This document shows, piece after piece, positions 45,930 through 50,166 of a stretch of DNA of 64,000 nt. Origin of the DNA: Acholeplasmatales bacterium (GTDB taxonomy: Bacteria; Bacillota_I; Bacilli_A; Acholeplasmatales; Anaeroplasmataceae); contig JAFSJY010000070.1 of the NCBI GenBank assembly GCA_017449215.1, forward strand, positions 887-64,886, written 5' to 3'. The notes below the pieces were generated by a model. The model did no database searches. It was given only the letters and a program-made list of their open reading frames with translations, and was not told the origin of the DNA. Numbering within the stretch: the stretch's first letter is position 1; every line of letters starts with the position of its first letter. The position numbers were made by a program, and so were the translations under genes.

Positions 45930-46889
45930 TTATGCAAATAGACAAAGAATAATTACTAAAATTAATAAGAACATCGCAGATGCGAAGAATGCAGAATCGA
46001 ATCTATCTAATATACCACCATGTCCTGGGAAGATATTAGAATAATCCTTTATACCATAAGCTCTCTTAAGCTTAGAAGCTACTAAGTCTCCAATTTGAGA
46101 ACAAATTGATAAGAATAATGTTAATACAATAGCTACTATAATATTACCGAATGTTGAGAAATCCTCTTTAATAATTCCATCAAAGAATTCAATAGATTCA
46201 CCATGGAATGCAGGTGAAATTAATGAATACATTGAAATAATAACTGTACCTAATACTAATGCTGTAATTGTACCACCAATAGCACCCTCCCAGGTTTTCT
46301 TAGGAGAAATAGTTGGCGCCATCTTATGCTTTCCAAATAACATACCAAACACTAAGGCAAATGTATCAGTGAATATTGTAATTGCAAGTAAATATACAAT
46401 GAATCTTAATCCGAATGAATATAATACTGTAAATGCTCCTACGCAAATACCAGAATATAATACGGATAAGAACAAACGACCTACATCAGAAACCTCAAAA
46501 TCAGGAACTAAAACCATCATTGTCATAAATGCTAAGAACATAAGGATGATTGCAGTAAATGGAGTTGTAAATTTATCGAATAAGATACCCTTTAATATTT
46601 TATGAATCATAGGGTCTTCTCTAAATTTAGAACCAAACGAAGACATATAGAACCAGTTAACAACTGAGAAATACATAACAATTGTTAAAAATACTGTAAA
46701 AATCTTAACCCATAAAGGAATCTTTTTAGACTTGTCATACATATTTAATAGTTCTATTTCAGCTCCGACAGCTACGAACATTAAAAGAACCTCTAATATC
46801 CTTCTACAAATAACAAATTTTACAGAAAGAATTAATAAAGGCAAAGCTATCATTATTAATATACTTGCAGTGACAAAACGTTTTTTCAC
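45930..46889 (-). CDS. cdsA: Phosphatidate cytidylyltransferase
   Basis: SPKKTWEG, GDLVASKLKR..GIKD..PGHGGILDRFDS; GTG start. Confidence 0.95.
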   Translation of the reverse strand: MKKRFVTASILIMIALPLLILSVKFVICRRILEVLLMFVAVGAEIELLNMYDKSKKIPLWVKIFTVFLTIVMYFSVVNWFYMSSFGSKFREDPMIHKILKGILFDKFTTPFTAIILMFLAFMTMMVLVPDFEVSDVGRLFLSVLYSGICVGAFTVLYSFGLRFIVYLLAITIFTDTFALVFGMLFGKHKMAPTISPKKTWEGAIGGTITALVLGTVIISMYSLISPAFHGESIEFFDGIIKEDFSTFGNIIVAIVLTLFLSICSQIGDLVASKLKRAYGIKDYSNIFPGHGGILDRFDSAFFASAMFLLILVIILCLFA

Positions 46890-47035
46890 GATTTTAGCCT
46901 CCCTTTTTAAGGATTATTATCAATAATCCTACAAAAATTCATTTTATTATATCATTTTGAATTATAAAAATCTAGATATTAGAGCCAAATGAGGGCTTTA
47001 TTAAGAAAAAATGATTGGATATAAATCCAACCAAT

Positions 47036-47164
47036 TTATTTCTTCTTTTTATTTCTAACAACAAAGAATAGAACCAAGCATAATATAACTATAATTGCCG
47101 CAGCAACACTAGCTATTATTATAGCAGGTCCATAAACACCCATAGGAGCTACATCTAAAAGCAT
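47036..47164 (-). CDS. 42-aa single-pass membrane peptide B
   Basis: MLLDVAPMGVYGPAIIIASVAAAIIVILCLVLFFVVRNKKKK*, own AGAAAGGA SD. Confidence 0.7.
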   Translation of the reverse strand: MLLDVAPMGVYGPAIIIASVAAAIIVILCLVLFFVVRNKKKK

Positions 47165-47192
47165 AACTAAAATATCCTTTCTATAAATTTTC

Positions 47193-47351
47193 TTATTTTT
47201 TATTTTTCTTTTTATATCTAATAACAAAGAATAAAAGTAAAACTAACGCAATTACAACACCAGCAGCAATACTAGCAATAACTAAGCTATTACTACCATT
47301 GTTTTCTGTTATTGGATTATCAAAATTATCAACTATAACATCTAAGAACAT
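47193..47351 (-). CDS. 52-aa single-pass membrane peptide A (not in ORF track)
   Basis: MFLDVIVDNFDNPITENNGSNSLVIASIAAGVVIALVLLLFFVIRYKKKNKK*, own AGAAAGGA SD. Confidence 0.7.
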   Translation of the reverse strand: MFLDVIVDNFDNPITENNGSNSLVIASIAAGVVIALVLLLFFVIRYKKKNKK

Positions 47352-47365
47352 AGCTTAATTCCTTT

Positions 47366-47725
47366 CTATATACTTATATTTGCTAAAGCCAATAGGCTTG
47401 TTAATAAAAGCCCAATTGAAAAGCTAAATGCATTACAAAAGAATCCATATAAAAGACTCTTCTTTTTATCTTTGATAATTAAGTAATATAAGAATGCTTC
47501 TATAAATACTATTAATATTTCTAATCCTGTAACTACCAAATAATATTGTAGCATAGAATCAAAAATATAATACTTCAAGAATAAATTAAGAGGTATATTT
47601 GTTGCTGCATTAATAACTAAAGAAGCAAATAATACCTTCATTCTTCTTTCAGATAGTATAAGTAATACAATCACTTCTATTAAGCATGTAAGTAAATAAT
47701 ATATTAAGATATCTATATCAATCAC
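47366..47725 (-). CDS. Small 4-TM membrane protein with intramembrane Glu/Asn motifs
   Basis: TCLIE..NAATN and IVFIE..NAFS, an internal duplication. Confidence 0.7.
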   Translation of the reverse strand: MIDIDILIYYLLTCLIEVIVLLILSERRMKVLFASLVINAATNIPLNLFLKYYIFDSMLQYYLVVTGLEILIVFIEAFLYYLIIKDKKKSLLYGFFCNAFSFSIGLLLTSLLALANISI

Positions 47726-48758
47726 CTAGCCTTGCTTTATTAATTTTTATATTAACAAATAACACTAGGAATAATGATAATAGGCTACCTATACCTATCA
47801 ATATTTTAGTAGCTATATCTGGATAATTAATCATACCAAATAAATAACCAGGAACTAAGAAGGCAGCTAGTAAGCCAAAGGCAAAGCCTTCTTTTTCCTT
47901 TAATAAATCATTTATTAAATATAATGTTAATGGCATTGAGCAGTTAAATAATAAAATGCCTAGTAATGCCAAATATAAATATGAATTAAAGAATATTAAT
48001 AATATAGCAGATAATACCATTGTAATAATTATTGTTTTATTGATGCCAATAAATTTAGCTATAACACCACCTAATGCTTTACCAAGCATTGATGCAGCAC
48101 CTATCATTATTAAAACCCATAAAGGCTTTTCAAATTCTAGTGGTATTATTTTGCCTACAAATGATCTTATTAATACAACTACTACGATTAGCAGGATTAG
48201 TACTAAAAGCCAATCCTGGCTCAATTTAATATCATTTAATACAGGTTTATCTTCTACTTCATAATCCTTAGATAATAAAAGAATTAATGTAATTATTACA
48301 GCAAGGCTTATAAATGTAATCCATACTGCTAAATGATGGATATTTGTTCCTATTACTAGACCTAAAGCACCAGTTGAAACAAATACACCTAAATATACAA
48401 TATTGTTATTTGTTTTAGATATAACATATTTACCACCACAAACATGGAAGAATGAATTACCTATACCTAGTAAGATTGCGCTTATTATATATTGGAATTT
48501 AAATATAATTCCTAATATAAGAGATGCGATTGAGATTATTAAGAATAATCTTTCCTTATCCTTATATCTATCAATTAATAATCCTACAAATGGCTGTGTG
48601 CAAAAGGCTATAATATTATACATTAAAAATATGATTAATGATTTATTATCATTACCATCATACAATGATGAGAATATAACTAAGGCACAAATGCCATCTA
48701 CTAAAAAATGTAGGGTTGTAAATAGAATAGTTGCGATAGTAGGCTTAATCTTAAACAT
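47718..48758 (-). CDS. MFS-like membrane protein
   Basis: About 12 TM; HFLVD, QPFVGLLIDR, GNSFFHVCGG, KALGGVIA. Confidence 0.7.
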   Translation of the reverse strand: MFKIKPTIATILFTTLHFLVDGICALVIFSSLYDGNDNKSLIIFLMYNIIAFCTQPFVGLLIDRYKDKERLFLIISIASLILGIIFKFQYIISAILLGIGNSFFHVCGGKYVISKTNNNIVYLGVFVSTGALGLVIGTNIHHLAVWITFISLAVIITLILLLSKDYEVEDKPVLNDIKLSQDWLLVLILLIVVVVLIRSFVGKIIPLEFEKPLWVLIMIGAASMLGKALGGVIAKFIGINKTIIITMVLSAILLIFFNSYLYLALLGILLFNCSMPLTLYLINDLLKEKEGFAFGLLAAFLVPGYLFGMINYPDIATKILIGIGSLLSLFLVLFVNIKINKARLGD

Positions 48759-48844
48759 AAAAACTCCAAAAATAACTTATTTAATAATTAAGTACGATTT
48801 TATACTTCGAATCAATTATAGCACACAGAAAAATGTTTTTGTAT

Positions 48845-48877
48845 AAAAAAACAATTTGCGCAAAATGCGCAAATTAT
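48845..48877 (-). terminator. Terminator after frr
   Basis: AATTTGCGCA-aaa-TGCGCAAATT with adjacent T-tract on the minus strand. Confidence 0.75.
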
Positions 48878-48880
48878 TAA

Positions 48881-49432
48881 TTACATAGACATTAATTCGT
48901 CTTGCTTCTTCTTTGTTACTGCTTCAACTTCTTCAATCTTCTTATCAGTAAGCTTTTGGCAGTCCTCTAAAGCACTCTTCTCATCATCCTCAGGTAACTC
49001 TAGCTTCTTAATTTGATCATTTAAGTCACGTCTAACATTTCTAACGTTAACCTTTGCAGCCTCACTCATCTTAGCAACAAGCTTAGCAAGCTCACGTCTT
49101 CTTTCCTCTGTCATTTGAGGTAATACTAATCTAATACCATTACCATCAGATTGAGGAGTTAATCCTAGAGGTGATGCATAAATAGCTGATTCGATAGCCT
49201 TAATTGATGACTTATCGAAAGGCTTAATATATAGCTGATTAGCTTCAGGAATAGTAATTGAAGAAATCTGCTTAATTGGTGTCATAACACCATAATAATC
49301 AATTGAAATAGAATCTAATAAAGATGCATTAGCTCTACCAGTTCTAACAGTAGTTAATTCTCTTTCGTATGCGGCAATTGCCTTGTCCATTCTTTCTTCA
49401 GCTTCAAGCTGAGCCATTTCTAATTCTTCCAT
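48881..49432 (-). CDS. frr: Ribosome recycling factor
   Basis: RTGRANASLL, YYGVMTP, TEERRRELAK, RNVRRD. Confidence 0.97.
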   Translation of the reverse strand: MEELEMAQLEAEERMDKAIAAYERELTTVRTGRANASLLDSISIDYYGVMTPIKQISSITIPEANQLYIKPFDKSSIKAIESAIYASPLGLTPQSDGNGIRLVLPQMTEERRRELAKLVAKMSEAAKVNVRNVRRDLNDQIKKLELPEDDEKSALEDCQKLTDKKIEEVEAVTKKKQDELMSM

Positions 49433-49446
49433 TTTCTTCCTCCTAA

Positions 49447-50166
49447 TTAAAACTTAACCTTAGTTCCAATATTTTCGCCCTTTACAGCTCTTAAGATATT
49501 ACCATCCTTATTCATGTTGAATACGATAAGTGGTAATTTATTATCTCTACATAGTGAAGCAGCTGTTGAATCCATAACTGCTAAACCCTTTTCTAATATT
49601 TCATTAAATGTTAATTCACTATACATATGAGCATTAGGATTCTTTCTTGGATCAGAATCATAAATACCCTCTGTACCATTCTTAGCCATTAATACAATCT
49701 CAGCACCGATTTCAGTAGCACGCAATACACATGCTGTATCAGTTGAGAAATAAGGGCTACCAAGACCACCAGCGAAGATACAAACTCTTCTCTTCTCTAG
49801 ATGTCTAATTGCCTTTCTTCTAATATATGGTTCAGCAACTGTATCAATAGGAAGTGCTGTCATACATCTTGTTGGAACTCCCATTCCCTCAAGTGCATCC
49901 TGGATTGATAATCCATTCATAATAGTAGCTAACATTCCCATATAATCAGCTTGAGCTCTTTCCATTCCAAGCTCCTCACCAATTTTACCTCTCCAAATAT
50001 TTCCGCCACCAACAACGATACCAATTTCAGTACCTAAATCATAGATTTGCTTAATTTGGGCGGCTATACCTTTAACAGTTTCAGGATCAATGATTGCATT
50101 TGAATCAGCCTTTAGAGCTTCACCTGAAAGCTTTAATAATATACGCTTATACATATTTAAATCCAT
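49447..50166 (-). CDS. pyrH: Uridylate kinase
   Basis: [31 protein letters not shown]. Confidence 0.97.

Follow-up and report, generated by a model that had tools for sequence, protein, structure and literature searches.

The window analysed here, a stretch of 64,000 nucleotides from contig JAFSJY010000070.1 of an Acholeplasmatales bacterium (assembly of 2.05 Mb, 29.5% GC), harbors on its minus strand (47012-48823) four co-directional open reading frames (ORFs) placed between frr (48881-49432) and cdsA (45930-46889). These ORFs encode a 346-aa protein of the major facilitator superfamily (MFS), a 119-aa protein with four transmembrane (TM) segments, referred to as the 4-TM protein, and two micro-proteins, pep1 and pep2, which start with a short conserved tag and cross the membrane once. 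The features of this islet, which are interpreted below in terms of a possible transporter complex, are as follows:

48850-48878, minus strand: intrinsic terminator of frr, a 13-bp stem followed by a T-run
48815-48823, minus strand: putative extended -10 promoter TGCTATAAT, about 55 nt 5′ of the MFS start, a consensus match by eye only
about 48764-48767, minus strand: ribosome site GGAG of the MFS gene, read from the sequence
47718-48758, minus strand: ORF of the MFS-like protein, 346 aa
47366-47725, minus strand: ORF of the 4-TM protein, 119 aa, with a GTG start
47360-47367, minus strand: Shine-Dalgarno (SD) sequence AGAAAGGA of pep1, overlapping the TAG stop of the 4-TM gene
47193-47351, minus strand: pep1, 52 aa, composed of tag, linker, TM segment and tail
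47175-47182, minus strand: SD sequence AGAAAGGA of pep2, within the duplicated TATAGAAAGGA
47036-47164, minus strand: pep2, 42 aa, starting at ATG 47164
47012-47033, minus strand: operon terminator directly 3′ of the pep2 stop, a 9-bp stem followed by a T-run

The islet appears to form one self-contained operon, since it has an extended -10 box of its own and is bounded by the frr terminator and by the terminator placed after pep2. The latter folds, as RNA, with -14.2 kcal/mol (z = -4.35 relative to shuffled sequences). Within the operon, the GTG start of the 4-TM gene overlaps the MFS stop by 8 nt, and the translation of the 4-TM gene would be coupled to that of the MFS gene.

Both micro-protein genes are preceded by AGAAAGGA, which lies inside an identical 11-nt element, TATAGAAAGGA, and alignment of the two genes, leaders included, reveals a tandem duplication with a 24-nt indel in the linker. 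The pep1 product (MFLDVIVDNFDNPITENNGSNSLVIASIAAGVVIALVLLLFFVIRYKKKNKK) consists of the tag MFLDV, a 17-aa acidic and Asn-rich linker, one TM segment and the tail RYKKKNKK, with a predicted N-out/C-in topology, and the pep2 product (MLLDVAPMGVYGPAIIIASVAAAIIVILCLVLFFVVRNKKKK) of the tag MLLDVAP, a short linker, one TM segment and the tail RNKKKK. The sequence IAS(I/V)AA..FFV(I/V)R and the Lys tail are common to the two, and the combination of M[FL]LDV and IAS[IV]AA was found in the window genome only in them. The initial annotation had described two paralogs with the same SD, LDV start, TM helix and Lys tail, and this was borne out by the ORFs and by the DNA alignment. It had also pointed correctly to faults of the ORF track, in which pep1 fell under the default cut-off of 60 aa and pep2 was listed from TTG 47227 (63 aa) in place of its true start, ATG 47164.

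No family above cut-off was found for the peptides in Pfam, NCBIfam, PHROGs or PADLOC, and PADLOC returned no defence-system match for the four window proteins and two relatives. C-terminal sorting models stayed below their cut-offs on the peptides (LPXTG, 14.4 vs. 15.9; GG_III, 16.1 vs. 22), and the peptides differ from sorting domains in lacking cargo and in having an N-terminal motif at variable distance, in an operon devoid of any sortase-like gene. Likewise, pep1 reached only 12.5 bits against the type I toxin Fst model (cut-off, 26). Sub-threshold library matches to ETRAMP, Rifin, Syndecan, LPXTG and Fst were rejected as composition-driven.

The 346-aa protein belongs to the MFS, as had been supposed from the sequence alone, scoring 37.4 bits against Pfam MFS_1 (cut-off, 33.4); a fused homologue, P0105, scored 44.2 bits. 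It has 12 hydrophobic segments joined by very short loops whose charges fit an N-in/C-in topology, and motif A, between TM2 and TM3, reads G59-LLI-D63-RYKDKER, with G59 and D63 invariant. A total of 230 homologues were found, and the alignment of 16 diverse ones revealed as invariant or nearly so H17, D21 and C24 in TM1, Y47, N48, Q55, G59 and D63 in TM2 and motif A, N101, H105, G108, G109 and K110 in TM4, and also R198, K227 and N272. The fold was modelled on P0105, a Bacteroidales homologue, in place of the window protein, and the AlphaFold2 model obtained (pLDDT 89.8, pTM 0.79) presented an MFS fold. In a Foldseek search of this model against the PDB, 130 matches were returned at E ≤ 1e-3, and the best 50 of the 130 were all MFS transporters; the matches were mostly to outward-facing states, with TM-scores of about 0.5-0.55. 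Regarding its closest relatives among known transporters, hhalign against Escherichia coli Fsr gave a probability of 96% (E 2e-9, 287 columns, ~20% identity), BLASTP against the same protein gave E = 0.001 over 88 residues, and a 44%-identical homologue carries the JGI label 'FSR family fosmidomycin resistance protein-like'; the NCBIfam scan of the MFS protein gave no match. By sequence comparison, the protein would be a compact, distantly Fsr-like member of the superfamily, with Fsr as the nearest named family. A role as a transition-metal transporter, considered because H17/D21/C24 resemble D39/H43 of ferroportin, was rejected: since the H-x3-D and FH motifs are common to Fsr, these residues represent a family signature and provide no specific evidence for metal.

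The 119-aa protein constitutes a new domain. No family was found for it in Pfam, NCBIfam, PHROGs or PADLOC, a Pfam scan of the protein and 26 relatives at E ≤ 1 yielded no consistent weak match, and a PDB sequence search with its family profile gave no match, as was also the case with the MFS family profile. AlphaFold2 predicted a four-helix bundle (pLDDT 93.9, pTM 0.83), for which Foldseek found nothing below E = 5.8 in the PDB. The loops that follow TM1 (SERRMK) and TM3 (KDKKK) are basic, which, by the positive-inside rule, puts the N-terminus and the C-terminus on the outside. In a 27-sequence alignment, ten residues were invariant, namely T13 and E17 in TM1, T42, N43 and N47 in TM2, E69 and E76 in TM3, and N98, S101 and G105 in TM4, of which nine are polar (three Glu, three Asn, two Thr and one Ser) and one is Gly. 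The intramembrane motif TxxIE..NxxT, said earlier to occur twice, was approximately right: the first copy holds (T13-x3-E17 in TM1; N39-x2-T42 and N43 in TM2), and the second is looser (T66-x2-E69 and E76 in TM3; N98-x2-S101 in TM4). The buried cluster of Glu, Asn, Thr and Ser looks like a cation or proton site.

The comparison with families of similar size or chemistry was negative in each case. For the SMR family (EmrE-like), there was neither a Pfam match nor a Foldseek match to a solved structure at E < 1; for CPBP/Rce1 (EExxxR, FxxxH, HxxxN/D), the 4-TM protein has no conserved His or Arg and no Pfam match; and for DctQ/TctB, there was no Pfam match and the partner is an MFS protein. The signatures of known intramembrane proteases are absent from the alignment, which contains no conserved His, Ser-His or GxGD. 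A profile search of 1.84 billion representatives recovered 4377 proteins with the 4-TM domain at E ≤ 1e-3, which occurs as a stand-alone protein of ~110 aa, at the C-terminus of MFS proteins of 404-481 aa, and in a few architectures of ~300 aa. These last proteins (P0263 and P0265; L005:892-1839, minus strand, and L006:982-1845, plus strand, in related genomes) carry the domain without an MFS partner. In one variant the 4-TM domain is N-terminal and is followed by a fifth TM segment and an acidic C-terminal domain, and in the other a signal peptide and an extracytoplasmic domain of ~170 aa precede a C-terminal 4-TM domain; the extra domains had no Pfam match.

The distribution of the module was assessed in a set with a single genome for each GTDB species, which provided 188 confirmed relatives, and 80 loci were kept, belonging to Anaeroplasmataceae/Mollicutes, Eubacteriales/Clostridia and Bacteroidales/Prevotella. 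All 80 come from metagenome-assembled or uncultured-isolate genomes, and where a source is stated it is gut or rumen. The counts given below refer to the 77 loci that do not run into a contig end, in which the 4-TM domain was detected by hmmsearch of six-frame translations. It was found immediately 3′ of the MFS gene in all 77, of which 14 have the two fused; in the Bacteroidales fusions, the domain directly follows TM11 of an MFS core that has 11 TM segments. A tagged bitopic protein was encoded directly 3′ of the 4-TM gene in 59 loci, and the strict rule of tag, TM segment and basic tail was matched at this adjacent position in 52 loci, compared with a single match at any other position in the 617 kb examined on both strands. 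When either class of tagged protein described in this work is counted, bitopic or class B, a tagged partner is present in about 67 loci. Within the taxonomic order to which the window belongs, the MFS protein has a patchy distribution (12 of 201 genomes), and the trio of MFS, 4-TM and peptide genes co-occurs in differing genomic contexts.

The peptides are present in one or two copies per operon, and tandem pairs are found independently in Clostridia (L043, L046-L048 and L052) and Bacteroidales (L060-L062 and L100). In eight genomes whose locus has no peptide, a search for dispersed peptides detected only combinations of TM segment and basic tail inside large proteins. It had been proposed that the neighbourhoods of homologous membrane-protein pairs should be inspected for linked peptides, and the linkage holds across three distant lineages. 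The recurrence of the trio in bacteria from gut and rumen belonging to these lineages shows that the micro-proteins are genuine genes and true partners of the transporter.

Some loci depart from this layout. In the Bacteroidales clade with a tandem pair, the first copy has the variant tag MILLDKVKP (L060:1877-2095 and 2135-2272; L100:5268-5661), and in L062 (5343-5651) the second copy is frameshifted. A clade of Bacilli/Mollicutes (L031-L033 and L040) has no tagged partner, and a gene called by eye as pyridoxal-kinase-like lies directly 3′ of its module.

The bitopic proteins have an N-terminal M-x(1-6)-[LF]-L-D-[IV]-x(1-3)-P, a linker of 5-130 aa, one TM segment and a basic tail. Among the 64 unique peptides of a relaxed set, including the two of the window, the tag is anchored on its Asp and reads [LF]-L-D-[IV]-[IAL]-x(0-2)-P, and Leu occupies -1 in 53 peptides, while 61 have a Pro at some position from +2 to +5 relative to the Asp; neither feature was used for selection. 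Bacillota and Bacteroidota both have the tag in conserved form, but the linker that separates it from the TM segment varies in length from ~5 residues in Clostridia to ~130 in Bacteroidales, where the linkers are of low complexity and rich in Lys/Glu or in Asp/Thr/Ser. The enrichment in Leu and Pro and the conservation between phyla agree with the initial annotation, in which the LDV start was regarded as a conserved motif of the recognition type.

The window and its closest sequenced relative, L110, illustrate the same pattern at short range. Their MFS and 4-TM proteins are 90% and 92% identical, respectively, and the peptides, which are present in L110 as an orthologous pair, 57-60%; on comparison of L110 (1851-2172) with window positions 47036-47351, tag, TM segment and tail prove to be preserved, with nearly all differences falling in the extracytoplasmic linker. 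This divergence could be due to relaxed constraint or to diversifying selection. The closest relatives of pep2 are the single peptides of G012/L029/L111.

The orientation of these proteins could be deduced from natural fusions. In P0190, a protein of 167 aa, the 4-TM protein is fused to a tagged peptide (…ILEVKG-MFLDVIAEPENL…TM…KYFKNKEKK) as a single frame next to the MFS gene (L109:3001-3504); four member sequences of this form are known, from one 19-kb contig. Since the tag of P0190 follows the C-terminus of the 4-TM domain, which is outside, the tag would be outside and the Lys tail inside, and since it is internal in this protein, it does not need to be a free N-terminus. In the MFS fusions, 11 TM segments of a protein whose N-terminus is inside precede the 4-TM domain, so that the N-terminus of the latter would be outside. 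The MFS/4-TM fusions, the loop charges of the 4-TM protein and P0190 provide three independent and concordant lines on the topology.

The tag also occurs in a second, unrelated class of proteins, designated class B, of 120-270 aa, encoded next to the MFS gene; in several loci, the class B gene lies directly 5′ of the MFS gene, overlaps it and codes for 120-140 aa. These proteins have an N-terminal hydrophobic anchor ending in the LLD(V/I) tag, then a Cys, and then a small beta-rich domain. In 10 of 13 cases, the spacing from the Asp to the Cys that follows it is exactly 8 residues (…FLIILDVMIFPFSC…, …LLLDIAPYPRMC…, …LIFDVVPVPMAC…), and the residues preceding the Cys (PFSC, PMAC and PRMC) do not form a canonical lipobox. 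Class B is found in several loci without micro-proteins and also in some that have them, and the window genome has no such gene. The class B proteins of L016 and L050 gave a best E of about 0.15 against Pfam, with no LprG-like family. The class B genes are located at:

L034, 3613-4014
L036, from 3613
L038, from 2853
L039, 2999-3415
L054, 3640-4008
L055, 3639-4001
L073, from 3616
L109, 1601-1987
L050, 5495-6307

Taken together, the reading tentatively favoured here, to which slightly less than an even chance is given, is that the operon encodes a transporter complex in which the MFS protein is joined by an obligatory 4-TM subunit and by optional tethered subunits with an accessory function, the tags of which dock on the outer side of the complex. 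Its starting points, namely the gene linkage, the fusions, the consistent topology, the conserved tag and the fold, are shown by the data. At the core would be an MFS permease of compact size with 12 TM segments, a distant relative of Fsr, which probably still cycles as a transporter, because the gating residues of motif A are kept in its sequence. The 4-TM protein would pack, as an obligate partner, on the C-terminal half of the MFS protein. The micro-proteins would be held by their C-terminal TM anchor, with the Lys tail in the cytoplasm, and would expose the short hydrophobic tag, Leu-Leu-Asp-Val/Ile-x-x-Pro, on the outside of the membrane, where it may dock on the MFS/4-TM pair as a tethered ligand, a plug or a specificity element, leaving the linker between tag and anchor free to vary. 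It may even be speculated that the Asp of the tag joins the polar cluster of the 4-TM protein. Such docking would give the tag a regulatory or accessory role, and the complex would presumably transport a small solute or a lipid. The existence of natural fusions both of MFS with 4-TM and of 4-TM with peptide supports a single complex, as fusions of this kind are typical of the subunits of one complex. Also in its favour are the terminator-bounded operon with strong, identical ribosome sites for both peptides, the MFS/4-TM pairing in all 77 loci, the conservation of the tag between phyla, the contrast in identity between membrane proteins and peptides in L110, the low copy number of the peptides and the invariant motif A.

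Several observations weigh against this reading. About 10 of the 77 loci have no tagged partner of any class, and the partner is consequently not obligatory. The presence of the same tag in class B looks more like a label for client recognition than like the feature of a subunit, and a fast-evolving linker with recurrent tandem duplication would also fit a diversifying product that is secreted or displayed. In addition, the Asp of the tag and the three Glu buried in the 4-TM protein would repel each other unless a cation or proton bridged them, and neither the riboswitch scan nor the clustering of neighbours gave a clue to the substrate.

In an alternative that is unlikely but carries real weight, the tagged proteins are clients: LLD(V/I)xP would be a sorting or processing signal, and the MFS and 4-TM proteins would cleave, modify or translocate the N-tails of the proteins that bear it, possibly releasing a short peptide. 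A tag common to two unrelated protein classes of the operon is in line with this, and so is the fixed Asp-Cys spacing in class B, which is reminiscent of signal-peptide-derived octapeptide pheromones and of the Asp-initial SHP peptides. The short forms, with tag, TM segment and basic tail, mimic C-terminal sorting domains and gave sub-threshold matches to LPXTG, PEF-CTERM and GG_III-CTERM; the long charged N-tails of Bacteroidales, of up to 130 aa, would need help in crossing the membrane; and the linker diverges fast between close strains. However, a distance of 5-130 aa between tag and TM segment is unlike that of any intramembrane-cleaved sorting signal, the short forms carry no cargo, only operon-encoded copies exist in place of a dispersed set of substrates, and P0190 would join a peptide to its own putative enzyme. 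Moreover, some loci lack tagged proteins altogether, the 4-TM protein has neither a His, Ser or Cys nucleophile nor any known protease signature, and the tag is the most conserved part of the peptides rather than a variable 'signal'. A specific form of this alternative, in which the 4-TM and MFS proteins constitute a new module that reads LLD[VI]xP at the outer face, recognizing or catalysing through the buried Glu and processing, translocating or releasing tagged proteins, is considered rather improbable. The initial annotation had tied the micro-peptides to the two membrane proteins, which is upheld by the linkage in three lineages, and had further seen in them substrates to be processed, modified or displayed, a view that is less well supported: a copy number of one or two per operon, the lack of dispersed copies, the P0190 fusion, the loci without partner and the missing protease signature lean towards a subunit or tethered ligand.

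Two further explanations take the MFS protein as the starting point. An exporter of lipids or other hydrophobic compounds similar to Rv1410-LprG, in which MFS and 4-TM proteins would extract the compound laterally and the tethered tagged partners would receive it or gate its passage, seems quite improbable. The Rv1410 homologue MHAS2168 (8pnl) is among the best Foldseek matches, yet, with a TM-score of about 0.5, these matches are not specific beyond the MFS fold, and ferroportin and VMAT2 match equally well. In several lineages the gene of a small anchored extracytoplasmic protein lies directly 5′ of the MFS gene and overlaps it, as in lprG-rv1410, and the tag is hydrophobic and at the level of the outer leaflet; nevertheless, the class B proteins that were scanned (L016 and L050) do not match an LprG-like family, and the window has no class B gene. 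The window module is placed between frr and a cdsA-dxr cluster of lipid and isoprenoid genes, but this context is not conserved in L110, L029 and L041. The remaining explanation, by which the MFS protein is an ordinary Fsr-type drug or metabolite efflux pump and the small ORFs are incidental, similar to type I toxins, or untranslated, can be given hardly any probability. The efflux pump would account for the JGI label of the homologue, for the hhalign result with the shared H-x3-D of TM1 and FH of TM4, and for dxr, the target of fosmidomycin, two genes away, although dxr adjacency was not seen in other loci. For the small ORFs, the weak match of pep1 to the Fst toxin model is outweighed by the conservation of frame, tag, TM segment and tail across phyla directly 3′ of the 4-TM gene, by the identical, strong ribosome sites and a terminator placed after pep2, by the fusion of a 4-TM protein to a peptide in P0190, and by the lack of any PADLOC or toxin family match. 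The notion that the micro-ORFs are incidental or non-coding is largely refuted.

Concerning the genomic setting, the islet occupies the usual place of uppS and breaks the common frr-uppS-cdsA order (window 45930-49432); a replacement of uppS by the islet was ruled out, as uppS is present on another contig (C12:13641-14303). The cdsA-dxr genes adjoin the module in the window, with dxr two genes away, and a functional link with dxr and fosmidomycin was rejected as coincidental, because this neighbourhood is not conserved in the relatives. All-against-all clustering of the neighbouring ORFs of the 80 loci showed that, apart from the components of the module itself, no functional neighbour recurs, and the pdxK-like, TtcA-like and ABC genes found nearby reflect lineage-specific synteny. 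Since the module sits in differing contexts in relatives, these data suggest that it moves as a cassette. An Rfam scan of positions 46500-49500 had no match, and in a scan of the window region together with 55 related loci, no riboswitch or cis-regulatory RNA was found upstream of the module. A Gut-1 RNA (RF01706, 50.5 bits vs. a gathering threshold of 50) was noticed ~50 nt 3′ of the micro-protein gene at L045:3734-3808, and in this one Ruminococcus-labelled locus only.

A literature search retrieved no description of an MFS protein with a 4-TM partner and tagged micro-proteins. If the favoured reading of a transporter complex is true, MFS transporters of bacteria can be built from several subunits, among them a 4-TM partner of their own and micro-proteins tethered to the membrane, an architecture known for TRAP/TTT transporters and some eukaryotic MFS proteins and for which no bacterial MFS example was found in the literature. 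If, instead, the operon encodes a tag-reading module, it would represent a previously unknown system of protein sorting or peptide maturation common to gut Bacillota and Bacteroidota, and pep1 and pep2 would be its minimal clients. In either case, two unannotated families are defined, the 4-TM domain, with ~4400 cluster representatives, and the micro-proteins, often missed by gene callers, together with a seven-residue tag conserved between phyla. For mutagenesis, the invariant Glu and Asn residues of the 4-TM protein (three of each) and the Asp of the tag offer direct handles, and the substrate may be relevant to the gut or rumen niche, given the stated sources of the loci.

When compared with known systems, the MFS protein shares with E. 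coli Fsr (TC 2.A.1.35) the 12-TM MFS fold and the motifs H-x3-D in TM1, QP..G...D(R/K)Y in TM2 and G.G.S.FH in TM4. It differs from Fsr, with which it has ~20% identity, in having 346 aa with minimal loops (Fsr, 406 aa) and, in Bacteroidales, a core of only 11 TM segments; besides, Fsr has no 4-TM domain, which is always paired or fused here, and to our knowledge no tagged micro-protein has been reported for it. From the mycobacterial LprG-Rv1410 pair comes the precedent of an MFS protein co-transcribed with a small anchored extracytoplasmic protein, an arrangement seen in part of this family, and an Rv1410 homologue is among the top structural matches; the partner, however, is not homologous to LprG, the window operon encodes micro-proteins, and the 4-TM domain has no counterpart in that pair. 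With the LPXTG/sortase, PEP-CTERM/exosortase and GlyGly-CTERM/rhombosortase systems, the operon has in common a series of motif, TM segment and basic cluster at the C-terminus and a co-encoded polytopic membrane protein. In contrast to these systems, its motif is N-terminal without upstream cargo and lies at a variable distance from the TM segment, no substrates are dispersed, and the partner proteins lack sortase, exosortase and rhomboid signatures.

Closer parallels in organization are offered by transporters with small subunits. The TRAP/TTT systems (DctQ/DctM and TctB/TctA) also combine a 12-TM permease with a small, poorly conserved 4-TM subunit, fused in some lineages, and with a third component, extracytoplasmic or membrane-tethered, encoded in the same operon. 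Their large subunit is of the elevator type (DctM/TctA), whereas that described here is an MFS protein (rocker-switch), and their third component is a folded substrate-binding protein, whereas here it is a bitopic protein of 40-170 aa with a 7-residue tag. Among eukaryotic transporters, MCT1 with basigin and SLC15A4 with the N-terminus of TASL have single-pass or terminal-peptide partners, and, as in the case of TASL, the terminal peptide of the micro-proteins could insert into the transporter. In bacteria, AcrZ, KdpF and MgtS are small TM proteins that act as subunits or modulators of transporters (PMC12648545), and the term MFS is absent from this review, which appeared in 2025 and deals with small membrane proteins of bacteria. 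The pairs AcrZ-AcrB, KdpF-KdpABC and MgtS-MgtA resemble the present case in that a bitopic protein of 40-50 aa is encoded together with a transporter without being strictly essential, and differ from it in acting on resistance-nodulation-division (RND) or P-type pumps and in having no sequence relation to the peptides. Neither these proteins nor basigin or TASL are known to have a terminal tag conserved between phyla or an additional 4-TM partner. Altogether, TRAP/TTT, AcrZ/KdpF/MgtS, basigin and TASL, none of which is homologous to the components of this operon, would resemble it in the logic by which a small membrane-associated partner is joined to a transporter.

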